In this document: positions 5,192 to 27,016 of the stretch, one piece after another
Layout: each line of letters begins with the position of its first letter
Position numbering within the stretch: the first letter of the stretch is position 1
IMG/VR virus record: IMGVR_UViG_3300009164_000039
Direction: 5' to 3' (one strand)
From: a virus
DNA length: 64,000 nucleotides
The notes under the pieces: generated by a model
Database searches by the model: none
Seen by the model: the letters and a program-made list of their open reading frames with translations, nothing else
Told to the model about the DNA's origin: nothing
Position numbers and translations under genes: made by a program

Positions 5192-6566
5192 AAGTGATTT
5201 CATGACAGCCGCAGAACAAATGCGCCACACACTAGGCGAAGGTCTTTGCTTGGCCAAATGGAAACAGGTTAGCTTGCACTTGCCCACAGGATTGAACAAT
5301 TCATGCTATCATCCTCCACTACACAAGATTCCTGTGGAACTGCTAGCAGGCAATCCTGGCGCACTGCACAATACTCCACATAAAAAAGCTCAGCGCAAGA
5401 TCATGTTGAAACATGAACGTCCAGACGAGTGTAGTTACTGCTGGTCAGCAGAAGACAATGGACAACTCAGTGACAGGCACTACAGGTCAGGCGAGGAGTG
5501 GGCCGCAGAGGATCTTGACAAGATATTGGCCTCAACCGGAGACGAAGATGCATTACCTAGCTATGTGGAAGTTAATTTTAATCATGCTTGTAATCTTAAA
5601 TGTAGCTATTGCAGTCCGCAATTTAGTTCAAGCTGGGCCGCTGAAGTTGCACAACATGGCGGATTCCCTACGTCCAGCCCTCACAATAGTCCTGAGTATT
5701 TTACTGGTAGTCGTCGCCCTATTCCTGCCCGAGAACACAACCCCTACGTTGATACCTTCTGGGAATGGTGGCCAGAGCTGTACCCCAAGCTAAGACATTT
5801 TAGAATGACAGGTGGTGAGCCACTGATGGATCACAATACCTATCGTGTGTTTGAATACGTGCTGACCTTGCCGCATCCATTGTTGCATTTGGATGTGACC
5901 AGCAACTTCAGTGTGGAGCCTGTGTTGTTTGAAAAGTATCTTGGCTATGTCAAACAGTTATGCAACACACAGATTGAACACTTCATGCAGTATGTGAGCC
6001 TGGACACCTGGGGCAGTCAAGCAGAGTACATACGCAATGGCATGGACTTTGTGAGAGTGTGTGACTATGTGGAACGCTATTTAGAGGAAGTACCCAATCG
6101 CAACAGCCTTACGTTTATCATGACCATGAACAATCTCAGTGTCACGGGCATGCATGACATGCTGGATTGGATACTGGAACTACGTGCCAAGTACAGTAAA
6201 ACATATCAGCGTGTGTGGTTTGACACACCGTTGCTGAGACAACCACGTTGGCAAAGCCTGCAGATACTGCCGCCTGCGTATGCCAACAGAATGAAAATAA
6301 ACCTAGAGTTCATGCGAGCACACCTAATCACAGATGATAGTTTTGTGGGATTCAAAGATTATGAAATACAGCGCATGGAACGAGACATTGCCTGGATGAC
6401 TGAGCCACAAGACGCACAAGAAGTCAATCATGCACGTGCTGACTTCTATAGATTCTTCAACGAACACGACCGTAGACGCGGTACTAACTTTTTACAAACA
6501 TTTCCAGAGATGAGCCATTTCTGGTGGGAATGCAAACATCATGCCGAAACTGAACAACGAAACTGA
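5184..6566 (+). CDS. Radical SAM protein 1 (N-terminal Cys/His auxiliary domain)
   Basis: CNLKCSYC motif, TGGEPL; N-terminal CLAKW..SCYHP..CSYCW. Confidence 0.9.
   Translation: MSKSDFMTAAEQMRHTLGEGLCLAKWKQVSLHLPTGLNNSCYHPPLHKIPVELLAGNPGALHNTPHKKAQRKIMLKHERPDECSYCWSAEDNGQLSDRHYRSGEEWAAEDLDKILASTGDEDALPSYVEVNFNHACNLKCSYCSPQFSSSWAAEVAQHGGFPTSSPHNSPEYFTGSRRPIPAREHNPYVDTFWEWWPELYPKLRHFRMTGGEPLMDHNTYRVFEYVLTLPHPLLHLDVTSNFSVEPVLFEKYLGYVKQLCNTQIEHFMQYVSLDTWGSQAEYIRNGMDFVRVCDYVERYLEEVPNRNSLTFIMTMNNLSVTGMHDMLDWILELRAKYSKTYQRVWFDTPLLRQPRWQSLQILPPAYANRMKINLEFMRAHLITDDSFVGFKDYEIQRMERDIAWMTEPQDAQEVNHARADFYRFFNEHDRRRGTNFLQTFPEMSHFWWECKHHAETEQRN
5548..5793 (+). CDS. Putative overprinted 2-TM membrane protein (81 aa) in +1 frame of radical SAM 1
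   Basis: GGAG 6 nt upstream of ATG 5548; two hydrophobic helices; host frame locally shifts to T-ending codons. Confidence 0.45.
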   Translation: MHYLAMWKLILIMLVILNVAIAVRNLVQAGPLKLHNMADSLRPALTIVLSILLVVVALFLPENTTPTLIPSGNGGQSCTPS

Positions 6567-7896
6567 TATAGAATTCAAACGCAGAGTGATTGACATCAAG
6601 TCAACCAGCTTCTGCGGAGCCAAATGGTACAATGCTACCATATGGTTGGGTAGTGGACAAACAACCAGCTGCCACCACCCACCTGCACACTCAATTGACT
6701 TGCAAGAAATAAAAACCAATCCTGCCGCACTGCACAATACCACTCGTAAAAAAGCTGATCGTGAAATGATGCAAAAAGGTGAACGCCCAGCAGGCTGTGA
6801 ATACTGCTGGAAGATAGAAGACATGGGCCCTGAGTCTGTCAGTGACCGTGTGTACAAAACTGTAATACATTCCGAGGAGGACCTAAATGTTGCATTTGCC
6901 AGACCCAGCTACACAGACTTCAACCTTCGCACGTTGGAAATTGCGTTTGACAGAACTTGTCAGTTCGCTTGTTCTTATTGCAACCCTGCTTTTAGTAGCA
7001 CATGGGTTAAGGACATTGGTAATAACGGGCCATACACAGGATTGGTATCTGACGGCAGGAACCATTTTACTCACGCTCATGATAGTAGTCAACTGTATAA
7101 ATTCAATGAAGTTAATCCGTACGTGGAAGCATTCTTCCAGTGGTGGGAAACAGATCTCCACCAGACACTAACAGAGCTTCGCATCACCGGAGGCGAGCCA
7201 CTCATGTCAGGCTACACCTGGCAGCTGATTGACTGGTTCAAAGCCAATCAAGGCAAGAGCCATACCAAACTGGCCATCAACAGCAATCTTGGCATGGAGC
7301 CGGTCAAGATGCTGGATTTTATTCGGCGTGTGGAAGGTATTCCGCATCTGGAAATCTACACCAGCAACGAAGCACTGGGCGCACAAGCAGAGTATATTCG
7401 TGACGGATTGAATTACCGGCAATGGCTCAGCAACATGGAGATGTTGATCAATTCAGGCGCAGTAAATCAAATGCATGTGATGTGTACAGTCAATGCATTG
7501 TGTCTGGAAAGCCTGCCTGAATTTTTAGATGAATTGGTTGTGTTGAAGAAAAAGTACAGCAGAGACTTTCCTAACTTCACGTTGAACATCTTGCGTTTTC
7601 CTAGTTTTCAAAGTCCACTGGTATTACCATATGAGATTAGACAAAAGCATGCAGACCGCCTGGCACAGTTTTTGGTACGCCACAAAGGACAAAACTACTT
7701 GCATGAGCATGAGATAAACCACGTGGAACGTCTAGTAAAGTATTTGCTTGAAGTAGATACACCTCATGCAGAAGCATTTGAAATGCCTAAATTGTTGAAT
7801 GACTTCCGACAGTTTTATATCCAATATGATCAGCGCCGCGGAAAAAACTTTGTAAATACATTCCCGGCTCTCAAGGATTGGTATGAAACACTCTAA
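6541..7896 (+). CDS. Radical SAM protein 2, paralog of protein 1
   Basis: CQFACSYC, TGGEPL; N-terminal CGAKW..SCHHP..CEYCW. Confidence 0.9.
   Translation: MPKLNNETDIEFKRRVIDIKSTSFCGAKWYNATIWLGSGQTTSCHHPPAHSIDLQEIKTNPAALHNTTRKKADREMMQKGERPAGCEYCWKIEDMGPESVSDRVYKTVIHSEEDLNVAFARPSYTDFNLRTLEIAFDRTCQFACSYCNPAFSSTWVKDIGNNGPYTGLVSDGRNHFTHAHDSSQLYKFNEVNPYVEAFFQWWETDLHQTLTELRITGGEPLMSGYTWQLIDWFKANQGKSHTKLAINSNLGMEPVKMLDFIRRVEGIPHLEIYTSNEALGAQAEYIRDGLNYRQWLSNMEMLINSGAVNQMHVMCTVNALCLESLPEFLDELVVLKKKYSRDFPNFTLNILRFPSFQSPLVLPYEIRQKHADRLAQFLVRHKGQNYLHEHEINHVERLVKYLLEVDTPHAEAFEMPKLLNDFRQFYIQYDQRRGKNFVNTFPALKDWYETL
6887..7171 (+). CDS. Putative overprinted 2-TM membrane protein (94 aa) in +1 frame of radical SAM 2
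   Basis: GAGGAGG at 6874..6880, 6 nt before ATG; two hydrophobic segments. Confidence 0.5.
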   Translation: MLHLPDPATQTSTFARWKLRLTELVSSLVLIATLLLVAHGLRTLVITGHTQDWYLTAGTILLTLMIVVNCINSMKLIRTWKHSSSGGKQISTRH

Positions 7897-9097
7897 GACA
7901 TTTTGCATATTGCCATGGATACATCTTCATGCATTCCCTGATGGCCGTGCGTATCCTTGTTGTATGGGAGAATATCACTCACCCATTGGCGATCTTAAAA
8001 CACACACAATGGAGCAGGTGTGGAATCAAGCGCCACTAGCTACCATGCGAAAGAACATGCTACAGAATGTCAAGTCCAAAGAGTGTGTCAAATGCTATGA
8101 GCTAGAAGAAAATGGTTTTGTCGGCATGCGACAAAGCATGAACCGTGCGTTTGCACATCACATGCCATTGGCAGATCAAACACTTCCTGATGGCACACTG
8201 CCTGACTTTCGACTACGCTACTATGACATTAGATTTAGTAATCTGTGTAATTTCCGTTGCCGCAGTTGTGGCAGTGTGTTTTCCAGCAACTGGTATGATG
8301 ACGAAGTTGCCGCACATGGTCAAGTACAGCATCCCAAGATCATGTTTGCTGGCCAACACAAACAAGACATGTGGGAGCAAATGCAACCGCATATACCACA
8401 TCTAGAACAAGTGTACTTTGCAGGCGGCGAACCCTTGATCATGGAAGAACATTATCGTGTGCTAAAAGAACTAGTACAGAGAGAAATGTTTGATGTCAGA
8501 CTGGTATACAACACCAACTTTAGTGAATTAGATTTCAAAGATGAAAGTGTACTGGAGTTATGGAAACTGTTTAAGAATGTCAGCGTTGGTGCTAGTCTAG
8601 ACGCCAGCGGCACACGAGCAGAGTACATTCGCAAAGGCACAGTATGGCACAAGATTGTACACAATAGAGAACGCATGTTGTCTGTGTGCCCTCAAGTTGA
8701 CTTCTATATAAGTAGTACCGTGGGCATACTAAATGTATGGCACTTGCCAGACTTTCATCGTGAATGGGTTGACTTGGGATTGATACGCCCGCAAGATTTC
8801 AACATCAACATGTTACAATCACCTGAATGGCAACGTGCAAATCATCTGTCACCGGAGTTGAAACAACAAGTGAAAGAACGCATACACAATCACCTTGAGT
8901 GGCTTGGTCCATTGGATCACATGAATCGTGCAACCAATGGTTATCGGAGTATTATAAAGTTTATTGATCAACCTGCTGATGCAGATCAACTAAAAGAGTT
9001 TTTTAGAGAAACTGATCAATTTGATCAAATACGCAATGAGAGTTTTGATGCTACCTTTCCTGAACTGACTGGATTGAGAGACCATGCTACCAAATAA
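7883..9097 (+). CDS. Radical SAM protein 3 with N-terminal SPASM/Twitch-like domain
   Basis: CNFRCRSC, AGGEPL; CILPW..YPCC..CVKC. Confidence 0.9.
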   Translation: MKHSKTFCILPWIHLHAFPDGRAYPCCMGEYHSPIGDLKTHTMEQVWNQAPLATMRKNMLQNVKSKECVKCYELEENGFVGMRQSMNRAFAHHMPLADQTLPDGTLPDFRLRYYDIRFSNLCNFRCRSCGSVFSSNWYDDEVAAHGQVQHPKIMFAGQHKQDMWEQMQPHIPHLEQVYFAGGEPLIMEEHYRVLKELVQREMFDVRLVYNTNFSELDFKDESVLELWKLFKNVSVGASLDASGTRAEYIRKGTVWHKIVHNRERMLSVCPQVDFYISSTVGILNVWHLPDFHREWVDLGLIRPQDFNINMLQSPEWQRANHLSPELKQQVKERIHNHLEWLGPLDHMNRATNGYRSIIKFIDQPADADQLKEFFRETDQFDQIRNESFDATFPELTGLRDHATK

Positions 9098-10298
9098 CAA
9101 TATATGTGTGCTACCGTGGATGAGCATAGAAGTAACCCCAATGGGTAACAGTCGCCCGTGTTGTTTGGCCATTGATGAAATACCAGACAACACTGGTAAA
9201 TCCTACGACCTTACCGCAGTGCCTATTCGTGAAGTATATCACAGCAAATACATGCAGGATCTAAGGCAACAGTTTCGTGCAGGAGAAAAACCCAGCACAT
9301 GCACACGATGCTGGACAGAAGAATCTGCAGGACGTACCAGCAAACGTATGAACATGTTGGCCAAATTCAACAATGATATCCAATCAATTGAATGGGACAC
9401 AGACACCCCTGAACAATTATGGTTCTTGGATCTTAAACTAGGCAACATCTGTAATCTCAAATGTCGTATCTGTGGATCCTGGAGCAGTAGTAAATGGGCA
9501 CAAGAAGAACTAGACTACTACCCAACAGCCACTAGAGAAGAACGCAAAAAACATTCAGCGTATGTATGGCTACGTCAGGGTCAGTGGCCACGTGAAAGCA
9601 TTGACTTTTGGAACAACATTGATCAAGTGCTGCCTGGTGTGCGCTACTATGAATTTACCGGTGGCGAACCATTCTTGATTCAAGAACATTTTGATTTGTT
9701 ACAACGCACAGTAGATCAAGGCTATGCATATCTTGTGGATGTACACTACAACACCAATGGCACACAGTATCCAGAAGCCGCAGTGGAGATGTGGAAAAAG
9801 TTCAAGCATGTGAACATTGCATTCAGCATTGACGATCTTGGCGCACGATTTGAATATCAGCGTTATGGCGCCAACTGGGCAGAAGTGGAACAAAATCTAG
9901 ACCGTTACTTAGAGTTAAGCAAAACACACACCAACATCACGCTACAAATGTGTATAACTGCAAATATACAAAACGTATTGTACTTGCCTGAAGTCATGGA
10001 CCATGTGTGGGCAAAAGGTTTTCGTGACGTATACATCAACATGTTACATGATCCAATTCAACTCAACATCAAGCAAATGACTCCAGTGGCGATTGAACTG
10101 GTATGTAACAGACTAAATCAAGTTCCGACCAGCAACAGATTCTATCGTGATTTCCAACAGTTAATAACGGTGATACAAACAGGTACTGGTAGTGATGGTC
10201 AAGAGTTTTGCAAAACTATCAAACAAGGTGACGTGTATCGCAAACAAAATTTTGCTGACCATCACCCAGACATAGCAAAGGCCATGGGATATGAATAA
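9084..10298 (+). CDS. Radical SAM protein 4 with N-terminal SPASM/Twitch-like domain
   Basis: CNLKCRIC, TGGEPF; CVLPW..RPCC..CTRC. Confidence 0.9.
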   Translation: MLPNNNICVLPWMSIEVTPMGNSRPCCLAIDEIPDNTGKSYDLTAVPIREVYHSKYMQDLRQQFRAGEKPSTCTRCWTEESAGRTSKRMNMLAKFNNDIQSIEWDTDTPEQLWFLDLKLGNICNLKCRICGSWSSSKWAQEELDYYPTATREERKKHSAYVWLRQGQWPRESIDFWNNIDQVLPGVRYYEFTGGEPFLIQEHFDLLQRTVDQGYAYLVDVHYNTNGTQYPEAAVEMWKKFKHVNIAFSIDDLGARFEYQRYGANWAEVEQNLDRYLELSKTHTNITLQMCITANIQNVLYLPEVMDHVWAKGFRDVYINMLHDPIQLNIKQMTPVAIELVCNRLNQVPTSNRFYRDFQQLITVIQTGTGSDGQEFCKTIKQGDVYRKQNFADHHPDIAKAMGYE

Positions 10299-11448
10299 AG
10301 TTATCCCGTTGGTTAATGTTAGTGCATTGCAAGCCCTGACGCCCGCACCTCTTGGTCGCGCAGAGGTTGACTCTGACTACATGACACGGTATATACAAAC
10401 TGGAATGGATTTTAACAAGGATCTTGGACTAGCAGGCAAATATTGTTATCACCCATTTAACACAGTCACGATAGACCATCGAGGTCGTTGCTATGTATGC
10501 ACCTGTCAGGCATGGTTACCAATCAGCGTAGGTAACATTTTAGATTTTAATTCGCTGAGTGAAATTGTTCACAGCTCACGTGCTAGAGAGATACAACGAA
10601 GTATCGTAGATGGCAGTTATCGTTACTGTGACAATAAAACTTGCGGGTTATTAATCAGCGACGCAATGGAAACTAGAATTGAGCACAAACCAGACACTGT
10701 GAATTGGATCAATTTCTGTATCGATGACAGTTGCAACTTACAGTGTCCTAGCTGTCGCACAGATTTAATATTTCATAAACAAGGTCCAGAATTTGATCTA
10801 CGTATGAAAATATCACAGCATGTGAGCAAGCTGATCAGCGAACACAATCATTTTTTACGATTTACACTAAGCAACGATGGGGATCCATTTGCTAGTCATG
10901 TGTACAGAAACCTAATGACAACTATTGCGCCACAACTGGTCAATCAGCTGGAGATTGAAATAGTAACTAACGGCATATTAATGAAGTCACATTGGCACGA
11001 AATTGAAAACATATACCCTAACCTCACACTAATCAAAGTCAGTTTTGATGCTGCCACCGAACAAACATACAACAAAACACGATGCGGCGGCAGTTGGAAC
11101 AAAGTAACTGAAAGCACTAGATTTGTAGCTGATTGGCTGGCTCAACGCAAAGCACAGCATCTCAATGCATATACTAGATTGGTAGCTAATTTTGTAGTGC
11201 AACAAACAAACTATCATGAGATGATTGACTTTGTAACACTGTGCAATTCGTTGGGTGTTGATCAGATCTTGTTTCAAAAAGTAACTAACTGGAATACGTG
11301 GATTGATGCCAACGGCACAGATCAGTACAGCGCACATGCAGTATGGCAACAGTCGCATCCTGAATATCACAAGCTGAAAGAAATACTAAAAGATCCTGTG
11401 TTTCAACAGCACAATGTTAAACTAACTAACCTAGCGGATCTACTATGA
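10291..11448 (+). CDS. Radical SAM protein 5 (divergent, DGDPF instead of GGEP)
   Basis: CNLQCPSC; CYHPF..CYVCTC..YCDNKTC; NDGDPF. Confidence 0.88.
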   Translation: MNKVIPLVNVSALQALTPAPLGRAEVDSDYMTRYIQTGMDFNKDLGLAGKYCYHPFNTVTIDHRGRCYVCTCQAWLPISVGNILDFNSLSEIVHSSRAREIQRSIVDGSYRYCDNKTCGLLISDAMETRIEHKPDTVNWINFCIDDSCNLQCPSCRTDLIFHKQGPEFDLRMKISQHVSKLISEHNHFLRFTLSNDGDPFASHVYRNLMTTIAPQLVNQLEIEIVTNGILMKSHWHEIENIYPNLTLIKVSFDAATEQTYNKTRCGGSWNKVTESTRFVADWLAQRKAQHLNAYTRLVANFVVQQTNYHEMIDFVTLCNSLGVDQILFQKVTNWNTWIDANGTDQYSAHAVWQQSHPEYHKLKEILKDPVFQQHNVKLTNLADLL

Positions 11449-12734
11449 ACAAACCTGATTCGTTATGCTTGGCTCCTTGGACACACACATATCTTAGTCC
11501 GCAGACTGAGCGCCGCATGTGTTGTGCAAGTCGCGAGCCTGCACAAAACTTTCAACAGTATATTGACACCAGCGCCGGTTCTGGCAAGTATATACCTATC
11601 ACTCTGGACGAACATTGGAACGGTGACCACATGCGCTCCGTACGAAAACGCATGCTGTCCGGCGAAACATTACCCGAGTGCGAAGTATGTAATGATAAAC
11701 TGTTGAATACCTCTGTGTATAGAGATTACTTCACGCACTTGTTTGCACACAAACTTGACCAAGTACATGCCAGTACAGATGACACCGGGCACACTACAAT
11801 GCAACCGATCAGCTGGGACTATAGATTTAGTAATCTTTGTAATTTCAAATGTCGCATGTGTGGAGACATGTTGAGCAGTGCATGGGAAAGCGAGCAACGT
11901 GTACATGGCATGATAGATTGGAACAATCCAAAGAACAACTGGATGAAGCCAGTCATACGCGATGAAATACATCAGTTTCAAACCACGCAGGTTGAACATG
12001 AGTTCAGTCAGGCAGTTGAAGAACATCGTGTTGAGGAGATATATTGGGTGGGTGGCGAACCCTTGATGTACGAACAACATTGGAAGTACATGAAAAGAAT
12101 AATTGAATTAGGGGACGGACCAAATGTCTATGCAAGATATAATACAAATCTCAGCCGTGTTGATTATCGCGGTGTCAATCTTTATCGGGATATTTTATCT
12201 GGGTTACGGGATTGGCAAATCTGCGCATCGCTCGACGGAACAGGTAAAATTGGTGAGTACATTAGATCAGGTCTCGACTTCGATGCTTGGCTTGAGAACT
12301 TCGCTCAAGGAGTTGCGATTGCGACTAATCCTAGACAGATGCGAATCGACTACACCCTTACCCTGCCAGGAATGTTTGAGGTTGAACGGATTGAACGACT
12401 GTCCGCAACCTACGGAGTACAAGTTCTGGCGAAGGTAGTTTTTAGTTTCAGTCCGGACATAGTTATGTCACCTTTAGCCCTACCTCGGGACATGTTACAC
12501 TCTTGGGTAGATGAAATACTTTCTGTGGTGAAGACCGACTCGTTAAAGGATATCTTGGTTCAGCTGAAAACTAGACCTACGTTTGCGGAACAGTGGCCCG
12601 ACCAATATCAAACAGCACTGCGCCGTGGTAAAGACCGTGTGTTGAAATTAGAAAGCATACGAGACAATCCTATCACAATGGCAGAGATATTGAGTGAACG
12701 ATCGGATGTATTGCACTGGTGGAATAACATATGA
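11445..12734 (+). CDS. Radical SAM protein 6 with N-terminal SPASM/Twitch-like domain
   Basis: CNFKCRMC, VGGEPL; CLAPW..MCC..CEVC. Confidence 0.9.
   Translation: MNKPDSLCLAPWTHTYLSPQTERRMCCASREPAQNFQQYIDTSAGSGKYIPITLDEHWNGDHMRSVRKRMLSGETLPECEVCNDKLLNTSVYRDYFTHLFAHKLDQVHASTDDTGHTTMQPISWDYRFSNLCNFKCRMCGDMLSSAWESEQRVHGMIDWNNPKNNWMKPVIRDEIHQFQTTQVEHEFSQAVEEHRVEEIYWVGGEPLMYEQHWKYMKRIIELGDGPNVYARYNTNLSRVDYRGVNLYRDILSGLRDWQICASLDGTGKIGEYIRSGLDFDAWLENFAQGVAIATNPRQMRIDYTLTLPGMFEVERIERLSATYGVQVLAKVVFSFSPDIVMSPLALPRDMLHSWVDEILSVVKTDSLKDILVQLKTRPTFAEQWPDQYQTALRRGKDRVLKLESIRDNPITMAEILSERSDVLHWWNNI
12124..12438 (+). CDS. Putative overprinted single-TM protein (104 aa) in +1 frame of radical SAM 6
   Basis: AGGGG/GGA upstream; N-terminal TM (IIQISAVLIIAVSIFIGIFYLGYGIG), Leu-rich helix, Cys-rich tail. 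Confidence 0.4.
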   Translation: MSMQDIIQISAVLIIAVSIFIGIFYLGYGIGKSAHRSTEQVKLVSTLDQVSTSMLGLRTSLKELRLRLILDRCESTTPLPCQECLRLNGLNDCPQPTEYKFWRR

Positions 12735-14667: not shown

Positions 14668-15360
14668 ATGAAAAAAATACTTGTTCTAGCCTGTAGTAGC
14701 GGATTGGGCGTCGAATGCGAAGATGTAATCAATCATTGCTGGCCCAACATACTAGGAGACCTTACTAACACCGCAGTAACCAATGCCTCTGAAGCTGGCG
14801 GTAGCAATGACATGATGTATCGCAAAGCACTGTCAATGACTGCAACTGAATCGTATGACCTGGTATTGATTGCATGGACAAACATTGATCGCATGGAAGT
14901 GTATTTTAACGAAGAGATTGTGTCTAATAGATTACCTGACGTACTAATCAGTGAAAAATTTCCTCGTGTGCAAGGACCTGGGCCAGTCAGTGTGTCTCAT
15001 CATTGGAGTGACTTGCCTTGGATTGAAAAATACTATGGCATGCACTATAATGAACGTTACTTACTAGAGCGATGGTTGCACCAAGCAATCACACTTCAAG
15101 AATATTTCAAAGCCAAAAAACAGCCATTTGCTTACATATCAAACTTTGGAAACACTCAGTATCTAAAAAATCATACAGACATTCCTATGTTAAAGATGCT
15201 GGATGTAAAATCTTGGATTGGTAACTGGCCTGGGTCAACTTTACGCGACTGGGGTGCACCAATTGGCGTACACAAATATGGTCATTTTACGTTAGACGCA
15301 CATAAATTTATTGCAGAAAAAATACATGAGCATATTAGGAATCGCGGCTGGCTTTCATGA
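14668..15360 (+). CDS. SGNH-like protein (degenerate block I)
   Basis: ASEAGGSNDMM, VLIAWTNIDR, GHFTLDAH resemble 12731..13492. Confidence 0.5.
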   Translation: MKKILVLACSSGLGVECEDVINHCWPNILGDLTNTAVTNASEAGGSNDMMYRKALSMTATESYDLVLIAWTNIDRMEVYFNEEIVSNRLPDVLISEKFPRVQGPGPVSVSHHWSDLPWIEKYYGMHYNERYLLERWLHQAITLQEYFKAKKQPFAYISNFGNTQYLKNHTDIPMLKMLDVKSWIGNWPGSTLRDWGAPIGVHKYGHFTLDAHKFIAEKIHEHIRNRGWLS

Positions 15361-16807
15361 TGCCGCACTAGCGGTAATTGACAAGCATGGGGACATTGTA
15401 TTTGCTGGACACAGTGAGCGTTACAGCAAAATCAAACACGACAAAAATTTATCGCCAGGCTTGATTGCCGAAGTATGCAAATTTGATATACATGAAATAG
15501 CATATTATGAACGTCCTTGGGCACAACAGTTGCGTAGATTGTACACCGGCGAAGGAGTAGAGTGGAACAAGCTCACAGTCCGGCAGATATTAAAAAAACA
15601 AATTAACGAGTTCAGTGCATTCTCTGGACCAGTAGTAGCATATCCGCATCATCTGAGTCATGCGGCAGCAGGATTTCAAACAAGCCCATTTACCCGTGCC
15701 ACAGTGGTTGTGATAGACGCTGTAGGTGAATGGGACACAATAACCATCTGGGGCGCAGAATACGATCGCAATGGACACGCACAGTACAAGAAGTTATGGC
15801 AACAAGGTTACCCGCATAGTATAGGATTGTTCTACAGTGCAATGACCCAGCGAGTAGGGTTGAAGCCCCTGGACGAAGAATACATTTTGATGGGCATGGC
15901 AGCGTATGGTGAGCGTGGCTTTGGTGACCTATTAAAAATGGACATGATAGAATCAGAATTTGACATTCGATTCAAACACAATCTACACACTGGTATAGAT
16001 AAAAAATATCTAGCCTACATCAGTGACTTTGATATAGCTGCCGGCGCACAAGATCTTGTGGAAACACTCATACTCAATGTTATGCTACGTGCTAAGAAGT
16101 TTGGGTGGAGTAGCAATCTGGTGTACGGTGGAGGTGTTGCGCTCAACTGTGCCGCCAATAGATTTTTAGGAGAATATTTTGATAACATTTGGATTATGCC
16201 TTGTCCTGGTGATGCTGGTTCTAGTCTGGGGGCCGCCGCTGTTAGTTTCCGTGGTTGTATTAATTGGACTGATGCTTGTCTTGGGCATGATATACCTGGC
16301 GACTATCCTGTTAATGATGCCGTGGCTGCTCTTTTGCGTGGTGATATTATTGGTGTGGCGAGCGGTCGAGCCGAGTTCGGCCCGAGAGCGTTGGGAAACA
16401 GAAGTCTCCTCGCAGACCCAAGAGGAACAGAAATCAAAGACAAAGTAAATGAAATCAAACGTAGACAAAAGTTTAGACCCTTTGCACCCGTTGTATTGGA
16501 AGAGATGGCTGATCAGTATTTTACTATGCCTCGCGGGTGGGATCGCAGTCGGTACATGCAGTCAGTCGCTGACTGTAGGCATCCTGAGTTATTTCCTGCT
16601 ATTGTTCACGCTGACGGAACTAGTCGTGTTCAGACCGTACCGAAAGATGGAAGCGGAATTAGAGAGCTCCTTGAAAAATGGTTCGTGTTAACTGATTGTC
16701 CTATGTTGCTAAACACCAGCCTAAACATACGTGGCGAACCTATGGTCAATGATCGTGCTGACGCAGACCGCTTTGAAAAGTTATATGGCATAAAGGTCTA
16801 CAGTTAA
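15326..16807 (+). CDS. Carbamoyltransferase, NodU/CmcH family
   Basis: ILGIAAGFHDAA, HHLSHAA, GGVALNC, GRAEFGPRALGNRS, RPFAP, DGTSRVQTV, LLNTSLN. Confidence 0.95.
   Translation: MSILGIAAGFHDAALAVIDKHGDIVFAGHSERYSKIKHDKNLSPGLIAEVCKFDIHEIAYYERPWAQQLRRLYTGEGVEWNKLTVRQILKKQINEFSAFSGPVVAYPHHLSHAAAGFQTSPFTRATVVVIDAVGEWDTITIWGAEYDRNGHAQYKKLWQQGYPHSIGLFYSAMTQRVGLKPLDEEYILMGMAAYGERGFGDLLKMDMIESEFDIRFKHNLHTGIDKKYLAYISDFDIAAGAQDLVETLILNVMLRAKKFGWSSNLVYGGGVALNCAANRFLGEYFDNIWIMPCPGDAGSSLGAAAVSFRGCINWTDACLGHDIPGDYPVNDAVAALLRGDIIGVASGRAEFGPRALGNRSLLADPRGTEIKDKVNEIKRRQKFRPFAPVVLEEMADQYFTMPRGWDRSRYMQSVADCRHPELFPAIVHADGTSRVQTVPKDGSGIRELLEKWFVLTDCPMLLNTSLNIRGEPMVNDRADADRFEKLYGIKVYS
16179..16448 (+). CDS. Putative overprinted multi-TM protein (89 aa) in +1 frame of carbamoyltransferase
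   Basis: AGGAG at 16168..16172, 6 nt before TTG; about 60 hydrophobic residues then a charged tail. Confidence 0.5.
   Translation: MITFGLCLVLVMLVLVWGPPLLVSVVVLIGLMLVLGMIYLATILLMMPWLLFCVVILLVWRAVEPSSARERWETEVSSQTQEEQKSKTK
16449..16691 (+). CDS. Putative overprinted 2-TM protein (80 aa), translationally coupled to 16179..16448
   Basis: TAA-ATG abutment; hydrophobic WLISILLCLAGG..ILSYFLLLFTL. Confidence 0.45.
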   Translation: MKSNVDKSLDPLHPLYWKRWLISILLCLAGGIAVGTCSQSLTVGILSYFLLLFTLTELVVFRPYRKMEAELESSLKNGSC

Positions 16808-18813
16808 TGTATGATGTATTTTATACCGGCACAGCACCTGGCGTGTTTGCACACGAACGCAGTGCCAACAACATTGAACACGCACAGCAACTGAGTCGTA
16901 CACGTTACTTCTGGTGGGTAACTGCACATTGTGACTACACCGACTTTGATTTTTACTTCACACCTGTACCTTGGCAAGGAGACTTCACGCATGTATGGCC
17001 CACACAATGGAAAGAGTTCTTTGGTGCATACCTTGTGCCCACCAACAGTAAACAACTAAACTATCACCACCACAGTGAAGTGTTACCTCCGCGGCAGCAT
17101 CCAGAGCACTATACAAAACTAATCAACTGCGAGTTTGATACTGAGTGGGTTCCGCATCCTTGGGACCCACCTTACATCTATGTGTTTGGTAACCAGTGGT
17201 ACCCAGCAGAGAAAATGCCCACTGTTGAATATCATGCGCCGGGTGCAACTGAGCGCAAGTTCATGCCGTGGCCACGTGCGCAACTGGTTCCTGACACTAC
17301 ATTATGGACAGTGCCAGAAGGCATTGATCCCGGCGACGTGGATTTTTCATGGGTGCCCGATCCGGGCTCACCTCCATATATCTATCAGTTTGCCACACAG
17401 CATCAGAAAACAGGTGGCCCACAATATCGTATGCCCGGTGCAACTGAAGTAAAGTATGTGGAACAAGTAAAGGTACGCACCAGTCGTGTGGCTACAGCCG
17501 TTTATGAAATTGATCACAGTGACGGCAACACCGGGTATGTTCCAAACATTACTCGACGTATTCGATTCTTTGACAACTACAAGGACACACTGATACGTCT
17601 GGCAACCAGTATAGGCGATGAACATGACTTTGTGTGGATATGTAGCAGTGCGTGTGACTACACAAACTTTGACTTCACATGGCACCCAGAACAATGGCAA
17701 GCTACTATGTTGCATGTGTTCCCAAGCAACGACCAAAAGTTTGGAGACACATTCTTCATGCATGTGCCCACCTTTAGAGCACGTGCTGAACAGTACGAAT
17801 TGTTAGATTGGTATGACCTAAACTTCTGCACCGACCAGTTAGTGCCACGCAGACCATTTCCATGTGTTGAATATTCTGGATCCAGTGTTGTACCAGTTAT
17901 TCGCGAGCATGAGTTTTTGGCCCCGTATACGTTATTTCAGCATACCTTGTACAGTTCAACACAAGTACATGCTAGTCCGAGCCTGTGGAGTAAAAAACAC
18001 CGTGAACTGATTACATTTAGCGCAGGAAACAGCGCCGCACTAGTGCCTAAAGATGTAAAACAACACCTTGAGACACAGGTTTATGACTACCCTTGGATCA
18101 AGAAAAGTAACGATCGCTTGCCCGAACTGCCACAAGACATTGTGTTTATCAGTTACGATGAATTGAATGCAGATCAAAACTATCACAATCTTGTGAGCCG
18201 TTTTTCAAATGCCAAACGAGTACACGGTGTTGAAGGAATGGTTGCGGCACTAGAAGCAGCCGCACGTGCTAGCACAACTGATTGGTTCTATGCAGTGTTT
18301 GCCAAGACACAGGTACATGAGTCATTTGTGTTTGACTTTGCACCAGATCGTTTCCAACAACCCAAGCATTACATATTCTATGCTATCAATGCAGTGAATG
18401 ATCTAGTGTATGGAGAAATGGGCATCATCTTATACAACCGTCAAATGGTACTGGACGGTCCTGCTGAACTGGGCATTGACTATACCATGAGCTTTCCAAA
18501 TGAAACCATACCGCAAATCAGTGCTTACGGTAACTTCAACACAGATCCATATCAGACCTGGCGTACTGCATTCCGTGAAACTGCAAAACTATGTTTGTTC
18601 CAGTATCAGACACCCAGCGTGGAAACAGAACACAGACTTGGTACATGGTTGTCACACGCACGTGGTGCGCATGCTGAGTGGGCATTGCGTGGTGCGCAGG
18701 ACGGAAAACAATTCTTTGAAGAAGTAGGTGCAGACGAAGCGCAACTAAAAGCAATGTTTAGTTGGAAATGGTTACGTGAACGCTACTGTAGTCTTTACGA
18801 AAAAACTTCTTGA
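16807..18813 (+). CDS. Multi-domain glycosyltransferase-like protein; C-terminal domain paralogous to 4292..5191
   Basis: DIVFISYDE..KRVHGVEG..TWRTAFRETAKL; internal repeats WVPxPxxPPYIY..PGATE. Confidence 0.65.
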   Translation: MYDVFYTGTAPGVFAHERSANNIEHAQQLSRTRYFWWVTAHCDYTDFDFYFTPVPWQGDFTHVWPTQWKEFFGAYLVPTNSKQLNYHHHSEVLPPRQHPEHYTKLINCEFDTEWVPHPWDPPYIYVFGNQWYPAEKMPTVEYHAPGATERKFMPWPRAQLVPDTTLWTVPEGIDPGDVDFSWVPDPGSPPYIYQFATQHQKTGGPQYRMPGATEVKYVEQVKVRTSRVATAVYEIDHSDGNTGYVPNITRRIRFFDNYKDTLIRLATSIGDEHDFVWICSSACDYTNFDFTWHPEQWQATMLHVFPSNDQKFGDTFFMHVPTFRARAEQYELLDWYDLNFCTDQLVPRRPFPCVEYSGSSVVPVIREHEFLAPYTLFQHTLYSSTQVHASPSLWSKKHRELITFSAGNSAALVPKDVKQHLETQVYDYPWIKKSNDRLPELPQDIVFISYDELNADQNYHNLVSRFSNAKRVHGVEGMVAALEAAARASTTDWFYAVFAKTQVHESFVFDFAPDRFQQPKHYIFYAINAVNDLVYGEMGIILYNRQMVLDGPAELGIDYTMSFPNETIPQISAYGNFNTDPYQTWRTAFRETAKLCLFQYQTPSVETEHRLGTWLSHARGAHAEWALRGAQDGKQFFEEVGADEAQLKAMFSWKWLRERYCSLYEKTS

Positions 18814-19873
18814 TATAGTCGCACACAGAAATCACATCACGGTGGCTCATTTGTGCATGTACAGGCAAACTCAAGCAACTGGCAGCTAGGTTTTCACTCA
18901 CTGGTAAACTGAGATTGGTTAGGTATACCGGCTGTTGATGCATGGCACGTGGAAACTGTATGCCTGTTTCTACGCCATGGTATGCCAGATACTGTTTCAA
19001 TTCATCACGTTCATTGGTAGTGATCACAAACTGATTGTACACATGACTGCTCACAGGGTTAGTTGCTGGCAAATCAATTTCTGTCACAAATGCCAGCTCT
19101 CCGCGATATACACTGGCATGCTCTTGCCTACGTAGATTCCAATCATGCAAGTACGGTATCTTGGCATGTAGCACAGCCGCTTGCAAGCCATCCAAGCGTT
19201 CATTCCAACCACGCACAAGATGCTTGTACTTTTCCAGCCTTCCGTGATCACGTAGCATCCTGACCAAGTGACACATCTCCTCACTGCCTGTTACTGCACC
19301 AGCATCGCCCATGGCACTGAGATTCTTGCCTGGATAAAAACTAAAGCAAGTGGCATACACTAGGTCACCAACAAAACGATCAATATATTGGCACCCTGCA
19401 CTTTGTGCGGCATCTTCAATGAGTGGGATATCCCCGGCGATAGTCTTGAGTGCATCAATGTCTAGTGTTTGTCCGTACAAGTCAACAAACACAATAGCCT
19501 TGGTACTGGTATTGAGTAACCCAGCCACGGCGGCTAGGTCTAGAGTGTAGTAACGTGGATCAATATCAACAAACACAGGCGTAGCACCCAATTGGCTGAC
19601 CACTTCAGCAGTGCTGATAAAACTCATTGTTGGCACAATCACTTCATCACCGGGCCCTATGCCCAAGCTATCCAATGCCAGCATCAGCGCACTGGTACCA
19701 CTGCTGACTCCAGCGCAGGCTCTGCTTTGTGTGTGCTCTGCCCAGTCCTGTTCAAATGCCAGTACCTCTGGACCATTGATGTAACTGCTGTTCTTGATGC
19801 AACGGGCCATGGCAGTGTCCACGTCCTTGCGACACTCTAGGTACTCTTTGTGTAGGTCTGCGTACTTGATCAT
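18758..19873 (-). CDS. DegT/DnrJ/EryC1/StrS PLP aminotransferase, DesV/FdtB (sugar 3-aminotransferase)-like
   Basis: SSGTSAL, GPGDEVIVP, EDAAQ, FSFYPGKNL (PLP Lys), GWNERLDGLQAA; ATGA overlap with upstream gene. Confidence 0.9.
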   Translation of the reverse strand: MIKYADLHKEYLECRKDVDTAMARCIKNSSYINGPEVLAFEQDWAEHTQSRACAGVSSGTSALMLALDSLGIGPGDEVIVPTMSFISTAEVVSQLGATPVFVDIDPRYYTLDLAAVAGLLNTSTKAIVFVDLYGQTLDIDALKTIAGDIPLIEDAAQSAGCQYIDRFVGDLVYATCFSFYPGKNLSAMGDAGAVTGSEEMCHLVRMLRDHGRLEKYKHLVRGWNERLDGLQAAVLHAKIPYLHDWNLRRQEHASVYRGELAFVTEIDLPATNPVSSHVYNQFVITTNERDELKQYLAYHGVETGIQFPRAMHQQPVYLTNLSLPVSENLAASCLSLPVHAQMSHRDVISVCDYIKKFFRKDYSSVHVTISN

Positions 19874-21243
19874 GCTCGTGACACCACTGGGCCTTGACTC
19901 CAAGGAATGCCAAAATCCAAATCGTCTCTTGCTTGATTTATCAGTATGCTAACCACATGATCAAATGCATCCAAAAAGCCCACATCCATTGGCATGGGCT
20001 TGACTGTCTTGTGTTGATCGACCCAGTGTTGCGTCACACGGGTAACACTGCTGTCTTCTACGTTGCCAATGATGTAACGGTCAGCACCTGGGCGATCCAG
20101 GAACCCTGTTTCGTGATACATGTACACATCACCTTTTACATCCACTGCCACGCTCACTTGCGGAAAGCCGTGTGGCACCAGTTCCTGCCAGTCTATCATA
20201 CGCAGTTGCCCAACATCACGACCGTAACGCAAGGGTTCTAGCGCATAGCCAAAATCAAAATGTGTGGGCCACTGGTGTTGAAACTCGCTTACTTGTGCAA
20301 ACATACCCATGAGCTTTTCACGTTCTTCTGCACCCAGCACACGTATGTTCTGACTGAAGTCTTCACGTAGTGTAACAAAGTCCACGGGCCTGTTGGCAGT
20401 GCGATTGATATGTTCTATTACCTTTAGCAGTTCTAATACGTCTTGACTGTGGCCTGGCAGGATGATGTAGTTGACGCCGACCTTGACTCCGGGTGCGGCA
20501 TTGATATATCCAATGATGTTTTTGATCACGTGATCAAAACTCTGACGATTCTTGGTAACTGCAAATGCTTTGTTTGCCGTGGTACCGTATAAACTAAAAC
20601 GCACAGCTTCTAGATCTCGCATGCCTGGGTGCTTGTGCAGATACGCATCAGTCATCATGTTGCCATTGGTATACAACTGCATCTTGAATCCACGGCCAGC
20701 ACCGTAACTGATAATCTCTCCAAGGTACGGATTGGTTAACGGCTCTAGGCCGCCGCTGATGCGAAAGCGGTCCTGCCACATGGGATCGGTTTTGGGGTCT
20801 TGGTCAATTATTTGAAAGAACAAGTCACGGCCGATTTGTGCATAGTCTGTGTCATACTTGGCCACAGGGTTACGTCCACAAAAGCCACAATAGAACATGC
20901 AACTGAGTCCTGTATAAAGACCCACACGATTAGGATATGCCCAGTGATGATTGAATGCTGCCTGTAGTGTGCCAGATGCCAGCAACGGTGCAATGGTATT
21001 GGTCCAGTACTTGGTGCCTACACCACTGTGCAGTATCTGTTGTTGTGCCCACGCACTGGCACGTATTTCTGCAATGGCTGATAGGTGACTTTGTTTGTCA
21101 ATTGCAAAACGTTCAGCAATGGATCGTTGAGTAACAAACGGATCGTTACTCATTGCATCTACAATTATTTTTGCATGATAGCTCAGTTCAGTTGGCGCAA
21201 CTAAATCTGATACTGCGCTGTGGTGTTGATAACCTAAGCGCAT
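19870..21243 (-). CDS. desII: DesII-like radical SAM dTDP-4-amino-4,6-dideoxyglucose ammonia-lyase
   Basis: VGLYTGLSCMFYCGFC, SGGLEPLTNP, DFVTLRED, DFGYAL, PQVSVAVDVKGDVYMY..GF..GADRYIIG, FLDAFDHVV match recalled Streptomyces DesII along its length. Confidence 0.85.
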   Translation of the reverse strand: MRLGYQHHSAVSDLVAPTELSYHAKIIVDAMSNDPFVTQRSIAERFAIDKQSHLSAIAEIRASAWAQQQILHSGVGTKYWTNTIAPLLASGTLQAAFNHHWAYPNRVGLYTGLSCMFYCGFCGRNPVAKYDTDYAQIGRDLFFQIIDQDPKTDPMWQDRFRISGGLEPLTNPYLGEIISYGAGRGFKMQLYTNGNMMTDAYLHKHPGMRDLEAVRFSLYGTTANKAFAVTKNRQSFDHVIKNIIGYINAAPGVKVGVNYIILPGHSQDVLELLKVIEHINRTANRPVDFVTLREDFSQNIRVLGAEEREKLMGMFAQVSEFQHQWPTHFDFGYALEPLRYGRDVGQLRMIDWQELVPHGFPQVSVAVDVKGDVYMYHETGFLDRPGADRYIIGNVEDSSVTRVTQHWVDQHKTVKPMPMDVGFLDAFDHVVSILINQARDDLDFGIPWSQGPVVSRA

Positions 21244-21246
21244 GAC

Positions 21247-22206
21247 TTATCCTTGATGGTAAGGAAAGTTTTTAAGCCAGTTGTAGTACAGTTGAAATCC
21301 TTCTTCAATGTCTACCTTGGGATCAAACCCAAAGTCTTGTCTTGCGGCATTGATGTTCAGCGCACCACGGCTAGGGAAGTCTGCATCTTTTTCACGCACT
21401 TCAATTGTGCCACGGCCAACAATCTTGCATGCCAGTTGTGCGGCCTCGTACAAGGTCTTGCTGTGGCTCTTGGTAATGTTGTAGATCCGGTTGTTGGATT
21501 CTTTGCTGACAGTGGCAGCAACAATACCGTCAGCGGCATCTCCCACATAGGTAAAATCCAGGGTTTCATTCATGCCGTTGACCTTTAGTGTACCACCGCG
21601 CATGGCAGTGAGCACAAACTTGCTGATCACACGGTCCTCCACATCCAGTTCACCGTACACAGCACTGGGTCGAATAACAGTGTATACCATGCCGGTCTTG
21701 CGAGCATAATCTTTAACCAACCATTCTCCGGCCAGCTTCATGATACCGTACTGTCCTTGTGGCTGACAGAGGTAGTCTTCTGTGACATCGTTATCAAAGT
21801 CTCCGTAGACCATGCTAGAGCTGATGTACACAAATTTGCACACTTGAAAATCTTTTGCACATTCCAACAGGTTAAGCAAACCTTCACTCATGGTTCTAGA
21901 ACCCAGTTGTGGATTGACGTTGACTACTTTCTGGCGCGGGAAACTTGCAAGATGAATCACTGTGTCTGGCCGGTAGGTTTCAAAGATCCAACGCATGCCA
22001 TCACGGTCACTGATGTCCACAGCATGTATACGAGTTGTGGCAATCTTCTTTAGTCGTTCAGGCATTAGGCTGTTGAGTTCAGCTTGTGGCACAAGTCCAT
22101 ACGTGGTACGTGTGTCTGTAATAAACACTTCGTGCCCTTGGGCTTCAAGTCGTTGCACCACATTGTGCCCAATCAATCCCAATCCGCCAGTTACTAGTAT
22201 TCTCAT
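21247..22206 (-). CDS. NAD-dependent nucleotide-sugar epimerase/dehydratase (extended SDR)
   Basis: TGGLGLIG, SSSMVYG, YGIMK catalytic motif. Confidence 0.9.
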   Translation of the reverse strand: MRILVTGGLGLIGHNVVQRLEAQGHEVFITDTRTTYGLVPQAELNSLMPERLKKIATTRIHAVDISDRDGMRWIFETYRPDTVIHLASFPRQKVVNVNPQLGSRTMSEGLLNLLECAKDFQVCKFVYISSSMVYGDFDNDVTEDYLCQPQGQYGIMKLAGEWLVKDYARKTGMVYTVIRPSAVYGELDVEDRVISKFVLTAMRGGTLKVNGMNETLDFTYVGDAADGIVAATVSKESNNRIYNITKSHSKTLYEAAQLACKIVGRGTIEVREKDADFPSRGALNINAARQDFGFDPKVDIEEGFQLYYNWLKNFPYHQG

Positions 22207-22207
22207 A

Positions 22208-22447
22208 TCACATCCATTTCAACCTATAATAGGTTGCATATTTTTCTTCACGGAACTCGCCTACAATACGCACACGATACCCATAGCTGATAGCATCGGG
22301 ATCGCAGTAGAATGTGGGTGGCTCTTTGGCATGTTCCATCACAAACTTGCCTTGCTCGGTATCCTGCCATTCGCCAAGAGGAAATGCCGCATACAAATAC
22401 GGATCCTCTACATCTCCCATGGTGAACTCATGCAAGAGCATTTTCAT
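22208..22447 (-). CDS. Hypothetical protein
   Basis: ORF in operon, ATGA overlap with thyA stop. Confidence 0.7.
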   Translation of the reverse strand: MKMLLHEFTMGDVEDPYLYAAFPLGEWQDTEQGKFVMEHAKEPPTFYCDPDAISYGYRVRIVGEFREEKYATYYRLKWM

Positions 22448-23358
22448 ACTGCCATTGGAGCTGAAATGGGCTCGTGATACGTGTAGTCACGCAGTTCAAT
22501 GTCTGCCATGGTGAACTTGGTGATGTCTTTCACAGCAGGGTTTAACCATAAGGTCGGAAGCGGGTATGGTTCGCGTTCTAGTTGTGTCTTTACCTGCTCC
22601 ACGTGATTGAGATATATGTGAGCGTCTCCGAGAACGTGAACGAACTCGCCTACTTCAAAACCGCACACTTGAGCAATCATATGTGTGAGTAGGGAATAGG
22701 ACGCTATGTTGAAAGGCACGCCTAAGAACATGTCGCAGGAACGCTGATACATTTGACAACTCAACCGACCTTTGGAATCGACGTAAAACTGTGACAAGAC
22801 GTGGCACGGTGGCAAGGCCATAGATTCTAATTCTCCAGGGTTCCAAGCAGATAATATATGTCGTCGTCCGTACGGGTCTCTATATAGACCGTCTATTAAC
22901 AGTTTCAATTGATCAGTTTCAGTTTCGTGTACACCACCGGCCACACTGAAGTAGCTGCCGTAGCTGTCTTTGAAACTGCCTGCACGTGCATGTCGTGCAG
23001 TTTTCCAGTGGCGCCATTGTACCCCATACACACGGCCTAGGTCGCCTGGAAACTGTGCTTTGGGTTTCCAGTAGTCTGCTGTGGCATTGGCAGACCAGAT
23101 GGTTGTCTTGCTAGACTCGGCGCTACCATGTAATATCTCTCGCAGCCGCTTCTCGTCCCCTGATCCTTCAATGAACCACAGCAGTTCTGAAACCACGCTT
23201 TTCCAAGCCAGCTTCTTTGTTGTCACAGCAGGAAAGCCGTGTGCTAGATTGTATCGTTGTTGCATGCCAAATAGGCCAATGGTACCTGTACCGGTGCGAT
23301 CTTGTCGCTCTTCGCCAGTGTCAAGTATCTGTTGTAGGGCGTTGTGGTAAGTCTTCAT
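22444..23358 (-). CDS. thyA: Thymidylate synthase
   Basis: DRTGTGT, ELLWF, YGVQWR, MALPPCH, YQRSCD, GVPFNIASY, GDAHIY. Confidence 0.97.
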   Translation of the reverse strand: MKTYHNALQQILDTGEERQDRTGTGTIGLFGMQQRYNLAHGFPAVTTKKLAWKSVVSELLWFIEGSGDEKRLREILHGSAESSKTTIWSANATADYWKPKAQFPGDLGRVYGVQWRHWKTARHARAGSFKDSYGSYFSVAGGVHETETDQLKLLIDGLYRDPYGRRHILSAWNPGELESMALPPCHVLSQFYVDSKGRLSCQMYQRSCDMFLGVPFNIASYSLLTHMIAQVCGFEVGEFVHVLGDAHIYLNHVEQVKTQLEREPYPLPTLWLNPAVKDITKFTMADIELRDYTYHEPISAPMAV

Positions 23359-23854
23359 ATAGTGGTAAAATGTTCCTGTATGTCATGAAATTGCAAGACC
23401 GGTCTTCACTGGGACATGCACTGGTTGCACGAAAGCCAATCAGGAAGTCTCGCATGTTTATCCTGGTGTCTGATCTGTAATTGCCTTTTATGTGTGTGAC
23501 ATATAGATTATTACATATAACGCGACAAACTTCAAGTATTTCTTTACCACCAATCACCCAAATTGTTTTACCAGAGAACTCTTTGTGTAGTGCAAGAACT
23601 TCGCTTAGTACATCGCCTGAGATTGTGCGTACACCAAGTCGACGTGGGTTGGTAGTGACAACTACATTTATTCTGTTTGGGAGTGGTCGATATTTTGCTG
23701 GCAAGCTATCCCAGGTGCGACGGCCCATTACAACAACTCCATTGCTAGTGAGTTCTTGAAAACGGGCCATGTCTTCGGATATGTTGGGCCAGGGCAAGGC
23801 TTGGTTAAAGCCTATACTGCCATTATAGTCAACAGCGAAGATAGCATTGATCAT
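23321..23854 (-). CDS. folA: Dihydrofolate reductase
   Basis: IG...LPW, VVMGRRTWDS, RPLPNRINVV, WVIGG. Confidence 0.95.
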   Translation of the reverse strand: MINAIFAVDYNGSIGFNQALPWPNISEDMARFQELTSNGVVVMGRRTWDSLPAKYRPLPNRINVVVTTNPRRLGVRTISGDVLSEVLALHKEFSGKTIWVIGGKEILEVCRVICNNLYVTHIKGNYRSDTRINMRDFLIGFRATSACPSEDRSCNFMTYRNILPLYEDLPQRPTTDT

Positions 23855-26962: not shown

Positions 26963-26987
26963 TCAGGCTCCTGTGTTGTATATAGTT

Positions 26988-27016
26988 ATTATACAATTTA
27001 CTGCAATTTACGTCAA
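26988..27016 (-). promoter_or_regulatory. Sigma70-type promoter TTGACG-N17-TATAAT
   Basis: Near-consensus boxes with 17-nt spacer upstream of vWA gene. Confidence 0.8.

Follow-up and report, generated by a model that had tools for sequence, protein, structure and literature searches.

The locus described here raises the question of what a bacteriophage would make with a radical enzyme of the DesII family, whose chemistry, in which a sugar nucleotide is deaminated or dehydrogenated by a radical route, has to our knowledge been studied only in the macrolide sugar pathways of actinomycetes. The gene in question lies in a 64,000-nucleotide stretch of DNA (hereafter the window) of the IMG/VR virus record IMGVR_UViG_3300009164_000039, between genes for a short-chain dehydrogenase/reductase (SDR) and a DegT-family aminotransferase (AT1). 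A first-pass annotation had assigned these three open reading frames (ORFs) to a desosamine-like route ending in a 3-amino-3,4,6-trideoxyhexose, with the initial amination given to a second aminotransferase (AT2) encoded 39.5 kb into the window. All three ORFs are present on the minus strand (21247-22206, 19870-21243 and 18758-19903) and their gene identities are as annotated; the phage context of a DesII-type enzyme is new. We favour, with moderate confidence, the reading that the SDR, the DesII-like enzyme and the DesV-type aminotransferase form the core of a nucleotide-sugar tailoring cassette which supplies a glycan module encoded by the phage with a 3-amino sugar, the product being probably a 3-amino deoxy sugar. 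Of the route first proposed, the part that stands is thus a DesII-family enzyme with intact catalytic residues coupled to a DesV-type gene, whereas the role given to AT2 is weakened, the terms "6-deoxy" and "dTDP" are assumptions, and 3-amino-3,4,6-trideoxyhexose is not established as the product.

The protein encoded at the centre of the cassette matches the TIGR04426 (rSAM_desII) model over profile positions 37-459 of 468 (E 1.8e-102, 343.5 bits), and its sole match among 177,635 distinct PDB sequences is Streptomyces venezuelae DesII (8hzv/8hzy, E 4e-69). The alignment spans phage residues 12-445 and 8hzv residues 36-476, i.e. the full length of the three-domain architecture. The residues to which function has been attributed in the DesII structure are C141/C145/C148, G187-E190, R238/S240/Y242, D323/Y324, E408 and D456, the D456A mutant being inactive (PMC11434129). 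In the HMMER alignment, where the 8hzv chain numbering is that of native DesII, the phage protein keeps every residue named in that paper (PMC11434129) except Y324, which is replaced by F. The conserved motifs comprise CX3CX2C, GGLE, the R/S/Y ribose motif, the beta-6 Asp and the equivalents of E408 and D456; the two latter, E378 and D425 in the phage protein, are invariant across an alignment of 12 diverse homologues. Because the functional residues are conserved and these acids invariant, the active-site chemistry of DesII is very probably retained, and the product of this gene is predicted to be a radical deaminase or 3-dehydrogenase of a nucleoside diphosphate (NDP)-sugar. The match to DesII across the whole protein, claimed in the first-pass annotation, is therefore borne out by the family model, the solved structures and the catalytic residues. 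With S. venezuelae DesII, the TDP-4-amino-4,6-dideoxy-D-glucose deaminase, the phage protein shares the three domains at full length, a single CX3CX2C cluster, the GGE, ribose and beta-6 S-adenosylmethionine (SAM) motifs and the E408/D456 equivalents, and it is about 37-38% identical to Streptomyces desII products.

AT1 belongs to the DegT/DnrJ/EryC1 aminotransferases (Pfam DegT, 320 bits) and its best structural relatives are, all of them, C-3 aminotransferases: it scores 273 bits with 7b0d, 263 with DesV (2oga), 232 with QdtB and 229 with WbpE, versus 95 bits with DesI. The pyridoxal phosphate (PLP) lysine motif FSFYPGKNL is found in the 18758-19903 ORF, and the DesV-like 3-aminotransferase type read from it earlier is confirmed by the PDB and Pfam scores. 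The ATG of AT1 (19873-19871) overlaps the TGA of the DesII-like gene (19872-19870) as ATGA, so that the coupling already noticed holds at the level of coordinates; because of this overlap the start of AT1 is most likely ATG 19873, rather than the listed TTG 19903. AT1 is predicted to act as a C-3 aminotransferase of an NDP-3-keto sugar. It resembles the NDP-3-keto-sugar aminotransferases DesV, QdtB and WbpE in its best matches (229-263 bits), in the FSFYPGKNL motif and in its position directly after a predicted 3-keto-sugar-making enzyme, and differs from the desosamine set in not being followed by a DesVI-type N,N-dimethyltransferase. Family membership, the conservation of catalytic residues and the coupling of these genes are direct observations, as are the co-occurrence of genes and the GT-A fold described below.

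The third member of the cassette, the SDR, matches Pfam Epimerase with 154 bits and the RmlB model TIGR01181 with 118 bits versus a cut-off of 365, and its closest solved relatives are the 4-epimerases of UDP-Glc, UDP-GlcA and UDP-GlcNAc. At the site of the RmlB TDEVYG motif it reads YISSSMVYGDF, and all its phage orthologues carry Y(I/V)SSSMVYGD(F/W) and YGxxK, in which the Ser/Tyr/Lys triad is kept and the Asp-Glu pair is absent. Since this pair is absent and the RmlB score lies below the cut-off, the SDR is, by sequence criteria, not a 4,6-dehydratase, in agreement with the earlier remark that an SDR without the RmlB motif precedes the DesII-like gene. It ends 3 nt before the start of that gene, which leaves no room there for the aminotransferase found in relatives. 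A second SDR of the window (46097-47077) is GalE.

The window derives from a jumbo phage, because its family-B DNA polymerase (PolB) is similar to those of Sinorhizobium jumbo phage Phosso (51% identity) and Agrobacterium phage Atu_ph07 (46%). Family scans took in about 60 of its ORFs, part of the small ones included, and among the ORFs scanned no cellular housekeeping gene was found; many ORFs have no family, and FolE, QueD and QueE genes are included in the gene complement. The window shares synteny with metagenomic or IMG/VR contigs of 100-345 kb, of which two have completeness ratings of 95-99%, and record names suggest an origin of some in lake metagenomes. The DesII-like protein occurs in at least 29 IMG/VR contigs. 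The cassette found no match in 50,697 phage records (blastn, tblastn), PHROGs holds no family for the DesII-like protein, for the 668-aa protein encoded next to AT1 or for the putative glycosyltransferase ORFs, and a literature search retrieved no described virus with a DesII-type enzyme and nothing relevant on radical SAM glycosyltransferases of jumbo phages. Within these three sources no virus with a DesII-type enzyme is described, in line with the first-pass statement that no phage with this route is known.

In most relatives the cassette has four members, arranged as SDR, aminotransferase "a", DesII, aminotransferase "b", AT1 being the orthologue of "b" (57-63% identity). Because "a" is missing from the window, from a 76%-identical relative (L064) and from several loci of a sister viral clade, the conserved core consists of the SDR, the DesII-like enzyme and "b". 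The DesII-like gene is followed by the AT1 orthologue in nearly all phage loci of the two clades, despite shuffled surrounding gene order. The aminotransferase "a" occupies the position of DesI in the Streptomyces DesI-DesII order. Since "a" is dispensable in several lineages, the DesII-like/AT1 pair may act on a substrate other than that of the route first proposed. A different arrangement is seen in the IMG/VR contig L044, where two divergent DesII-like paralogues (1326-2819 and 4549-5787) lie around a single DegT gene.

The cassette is accompanied in every arrangement seen by a homologue of the 668-aa protein, which in L040 lies between "a" and DesII. The conserved residues 430-668 of this protein (239 residues) were modelled with a pLDDT of 88.6 and a pTM of 0.82, and the model gave VIA Z scores of 9.2 with BcsA (the cellulose synthase glycosyltransferase domain) over 221 aa, 8.8 with PcManGT and 8.7 with hyaluronan synthase. 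Foldseek returned a probability of 1.0 for WrtF and PcManGT, and GT2 enzymes aligned over 200-223 residues with Z values of 8-9. Scores of this size are modest, and nucleotidyltransferases of the same superfold also match the first ~130 residues of the domain. According to the model the C-terminal domain has a GT-A fold, which would make the protein a glycosyltransferase. The full-length model is poor (pLDDT 65) and its Foldseek matches, tandem GT-A proteins at a TM of ~0.16, serve as a lead only. A gene for a NodU/CmcH-type O-carbamoyltransferase accompanies the cassette in each of the two phage clades, and arrays homologous to the six tandem radical SAM ORFs of the window adjoin it in relatives; the ORFs around this array (2329-5191 and 12731-14571) had no Pfam match. 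Because of this constant linkage, the cassette, the GT-A-fold protein, the O-carbamoyltransferase and the radical SAM array look like one glycan-building module.

In the mechanism that we propose, the radical SAM enzyme would take the C-3 hydrogen from an NDP-hexose, and a 3-keto sugar would be formed either via loss of a vicinal 4-amino group, in the way of DesII, or via net dehydrogenation of a 3,4-diol. Net dehydrogenation is the second known activity of DesII. The translationally coupled AT1 would turn the 3-ketone into a 3-amino sugar, the SDR would serve as an epimerase or ketoreductase with no part in 4,6-dehydration, and the NDP-sugar would be consumed by the adjacent GT-A-fold protein, which, aided by the radical SAM array and the O-carbamoyltransferase, would assemble a modified glycan; virion fibres are its most plausible site. 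The substrate, regiochemistry, nucleotide carrier, product and acceptor in this scheme are those that we infer. Keto-sugar chemistry is suggested because cellular DesII-like domains are fused to or lie beside NAD-dependent oxidoreductases, often near DegT genes. It is tempting to go further and speculate, while holding the idea rather doubtful, that freshwater jumbo phages build a hypermodified glycan with an amino-deoxy core, O-carbamoylated and modified further by as many as six radical SAM enzymes, and that where "a" is missing the DesII-type enzyme is a radical 3-dehydrogenase instead of a deaminase. If so, one enzyme family would lead to 3-amino or to 3-amino-4-deoxy sugars, as set by gene content.

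Table 1. Position of the cassette, its upstream neighbours, the linked genes and AT2 in the window.
Feature	Coordinates	Strand	Support
Six tandem radical SAM ORFs, same super-cluster	5184..12734	+	PHROG and Pfam radical SAM matches
NodU/CmcH-type O-carbamoyltransferase	15311..16807	+	phrog_1601, 302 bits
668-aa multidomain protein, candidate glycosyltransferase, converges on AT1	16807..18813	+	C-terminal GT-A fold model
AT1, DegT-family aminotransferase, DesV/QdtB/WbpE-like, 371 aa	18758..19873	-	Pfam DegT, PDB matches, ATGA overlap
DesII-family radical SAM enzyme, 457 aa	19870..21243	-	TIGR04426, PDB match, conserved residues, phage-only clade
Extended SDR, epimerase/reductase type, 319 aa	21247..22206	-	Pfam Epimerase, PDB 4-epimerases
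Small conserved ORF, 79 aa, between thyA and SDR	22208..22447	-	46% identical counterpart in G001, same position
thyA (22444-23358) and folA (23321-23854)	22444..23854	-	Directly upstream of cassette
AT2, second DegT aminotransferase, 371 aa, HATK motif	39506..40621	-	Pfam DegT, 189 bits

Several observations weigh against a cassette working in this way. The 343.5 bits of the DesII-like protein fall below the curated TIGR04426 equivalog cut-off of 450 bits, which a Streptomyces plasmid desII control passes with 855.6; homologues from phages, archaea and SAR11, and the fused bacterial ones, all lie between 317 and 431 bits. In a tree of 55 rows (quick LG+G4, only two of them actinomycete) the protein falls in a phage-only clade (SH-aLRT 100) outside actinomycete DesII, sister to a second viral clade, both on long branches from Streptomyces desII (0.74 + 0.74). 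The phage protein is thus of the DesII family but is a non-canonical DesII, and the grouping inside DesII expected by the first-pass annotation is not found, an outcome which that annotation had listed as refuting; because of the score and this position its substrate may differ from that of DesII. From S. venezuelae DesII it differs also in having no adjacent DesI and no macrolide context and in being phage-borne. Furthermore, aminotransferase "a" is nearer to DesV (176 bits) than to DesI (99 bits) and, for this reason, sequence comparison leaves an amination at C-4 followed by one at C-3 not established. Neither a 4,6-dehydratase nor an RmlA-type nucleotidyltransferase nor an in-cluster 4-aminotransferase was found among the scanned ORFs of the window, where Pfam NTP_transferase and methyltransferase models had no match, so that the reported absence of RmlA and DesVI holds for this set; NTP_transferase was not found in the two 95-99% complete relatives either. 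In the candidate glycosyltransferase, finally, a DxD motif is absent after beta-4, where FAKT, FGKT or FPK is read and the Lys is invariant. Metal-independent GT-A enzymes exist.

The alternative that survives best is the full route of the first-pass annotation, in which AT2 or a host enzyme would provide an NDP-4-amino-4,6-dideoxyhexose, the DesII-like enzyme would convert it to the 3-keto-4,6-dideoxy sugar and AT1 to an NDP-3-amino-3,4,6-trideoxyhexose, i.e. un-methylated desosamine. We consider it unlikely. The conserved deamination residues and the DesV-like AT1 would fit it as they fit the reading that we favour, and AT2 does carry the two motifs reported for it, FSMHATK and GTNAKLSE, the FSxHATK lysine motif being common to the Streptomyces DesI-type enzyme. 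AT2 is slightly nearer to that enzyme (27% identity over the full length, 102 bits) than to AT1 (76 bits). Cellular proteins of Betaproteobacteria homologous to AT2, with 35-41% identity and encoded in surface-glycan loci, are labelled by one source as 4-aminotransferases of 6-deoxy sugars. The distribution is complementary, as AT2 is present in the window, which has no "a", and absent from G001 and G002, near-complete relatives that carry "a". AT2 is, however, not orthologous to "a" (25% identity), and its best PDB match is 3ju7, a protein of uncharacterised function (110 bits, versus 73 with DesI and 63 with DesV). It overlaps by 4 nt, and is thus translationally coupled to, a HIT-domain gene (40618-41097), and its site, flanked by QueD and QueE, is occupied by other genes in G001, the order HIT-AT2-QueE recurring in an 85%-identical relative. 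On these grounds the case for the 39.5-kb gene as the partner of DesII is weakened: a 4-aminotransferase is a possible assignment by sequence, and that AT2 supplies the DesII-like enzyme is rather unlikely. Moreover, several phage loci have a single aminotransferase, the SDR would be idle in such a scheme, and the window lacks DesVI and any maker of a 4-keto-6-deoxy sugar, which leaves "6-deoxy" and "dTDP" as assumptions. The phages could, on the other hand, make such sugars themselves, since near-complete relative G001 encodes a GDP-mannose 4,6-dehydratase (L067:3250-4227, corresponding to G001:C1 ~142.2-143.2 kb; 408 bits versus a cut-off of 415), a possible phage-made source of a 4-keto-6-deoxy sugar as far as the family match goes. 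This gene is flanked by FkbM-family and class I methyltransferase-like genes.

The surroundings of AT2 form a 7-deazaguanine precursor region (38232-47077) with FolE, two PTPS/QueD paralogues and QueE, interleaved with the HIT gene, AT2, a cytidylyltransferase-like gene, a PRTase gene and GalE; QueC had no match among the window ORFs scanned. The QueD-QueE slot of G001 holds a radical SAM gene and a methyltransferase gene.

A second alternative, which we regard as improbable, is a deoxygenation of the chalcose type, in which an aminotransferase would act before the radical SAM enzyme and the SDR would reduce the deoxy-keto sugar, the outcome being a deoxy sugar instead of an amino sugar, to which "a" would add an optional amine. 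The phage core holds a single gene each for the SDR, the DesII-like enzyme and the aminotransferase, and it resembles the chalcose-type 4-deoxygenation loci of Streptomyces plasmid controls in that an aminotransferase and an NAD-dependent oxidoreductase accompany a DesII-type enzyme. Such sets recur in cellular genomes. The DesII-like family is very small, counting 48 representatives at E <= 1e-30 among 1.84 billion, with genes in SAR11, Marine Group I Thaumarchaeota, Acidobacteria, Elusimicrobia, Omnitrophota and cyanobacteria, and many of the cellular homologues are fusions of ~850 aa (750-905) with an N-terminal Gfo/Idh/MocA oxidoreductase (P0121, P0124, P0130, P0141, P0149, L006:759-3482 and L009:6789-9392). 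In the Omnitrophota locus L009 a DegT gene overlaps the start of the fusion, and the set looks like a compact deoxygenation unit of aminotransferase, radical deaminase and ketoreductase, a reading of gene content for which we know of no earlier description. The SAR11 genes mostly have no DegT gene within 8 kb and have small NAD-binding ORFs adjacent. Because of the fusions and these neighbours, the comparison suggests that the radical enzyme is generally partnered by a keto-sugar oxidoreductase, as it is in 4-deoxygenation of the chalcose type, and a Gfo/Idh/MocA gene is present also in the Streptomyces desI-desII control locus. Nevertheless, AT1 is far nearer to C-3 than to C-4 aminotransferases and lies downstream of the DesII-like gene, to which it is coupled; instead of a Gfo/Idh/MocA protein the phage has an extended SDR of epimerase-like type, similar to 4-epimerases and without similarity to the SDR of the Streptomyces locus. 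For want of that similarity the Streptomyces SDR was also rejected as a model for the phage enzyme. Bit scores of the aminotransferases adjacent to cellular DesII genes, versus DesI and versus the phage aminotransferases, gave no clear division between the two roles. BlsE, considered as a DesII-like diol dehydratase analogue, was dropped, as the BlsE paper calls it NirJ-like (35% identity). The DesII-family genes of SAR11 (L011-L025, L029, Pelagibacteraceae) and of an ammonia-oxidising archaeon (L026) are 33-44% identical to the phage protein.

A third possibility is that the sugar, or the radical SAM/PLP pair, serves the hypermodification of DNA as thymidine or 7-deazaguanine derivatives. Radical SAM and PLP pairs act in known thymidine hypermodification, ThyA or ThyX is always encoded directly upstream of the cassette, and FolE, QueD and QueE are encoded in the genome. 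We give this explanation very little credit: thyA passes the thymidylate synthase equivalog cut-off (NF002497, 353 bits versus 327) and relatives have ThyX, by which a hydroxymethylase is not indicated; the strong and specific similarity of the cassette proteins is to NDP-sugar enzymes; and the genes with which they are tightly linked encode a GT-A-fold protein and a carbamoyltransferase. That the cassette is a decaying remnant, made non-functional by loss of the upstream aminotransferase, might be read from the four genes of most relatives versus the three of the window, but can scarcely be entertained: none of the three ORFs is disrupted, the catalytic residues are conserved, and the three-gene layout recurs in the 76%-identical relative and in the second phage clade.

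With regard to the tailoring cassette that we favour, viral precedents come from giant-virus fibril and chlorovirus capsid glycans, for which nucleotide-sugar pathways and glycosyltransferases are virus-encoded. The likeness lies in a large virus encoding sugar aminotransferases, SDRs and GT-A enzymes, with fold matches to PBCV-1 A64R and Mimivirus R699/R655, and the difference in a bacterial host and in a radical SAM sugar enzyme accompanied by a further radical SAM array. Our findings extend the DesII-like family beyond actinomycetes, to a phage-specific clade, to members in SAR11 and Thaumarchaeota and to Gfo/Idh/MocA fusions, and they show the phage gene as the constant core of a large module of shuffled order, to which a carbamoyltransferase, numerous radical SAM enzymes and a GT-A protein also belong. 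The three- and four-gene variants represent a natural experiment on deamination versus dehydrogenation in this family. Should the product be displayed on virions or alter the surface of the host, the module would amount to a new phage glycan chemistry and to a natural enzyme source for rare deoxyamino sugars.

Upstream of the cassette, thyA and folA follow on the same strand, spaced by overlaps or gaps of 1-4 nt, as expected from the single operon described in the first-pass annotation. A scan for promoters and terminators over 18-25.5 kb gave counts close to the shuffled expectation, and the small ORF between thyA and the SDR had no family match. The slot directly upstream holds either ThyA and DHFR, as in the window (22444-23854), or ThyX (L001:6809-7474; L005:6996-7667), a non-orthologous replacement at a fixed position. 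Further upstream, a pair formed by a DUF2201 metallopeptidase/VWA-like protein and an AAA ATPase (25682-28167) is kept ahead of the nucleotide/sugar block in all relatives. The window encodes at least nine radical SAM enzymes; one of them, a radical SAM/SPASM gene (61220-62341), stands beside a ferritin-like gene (60781-61212), near a fatty-acid-desaturase-like gene (58640-59353), and the ferritin-like protein may be linked to iron supply.

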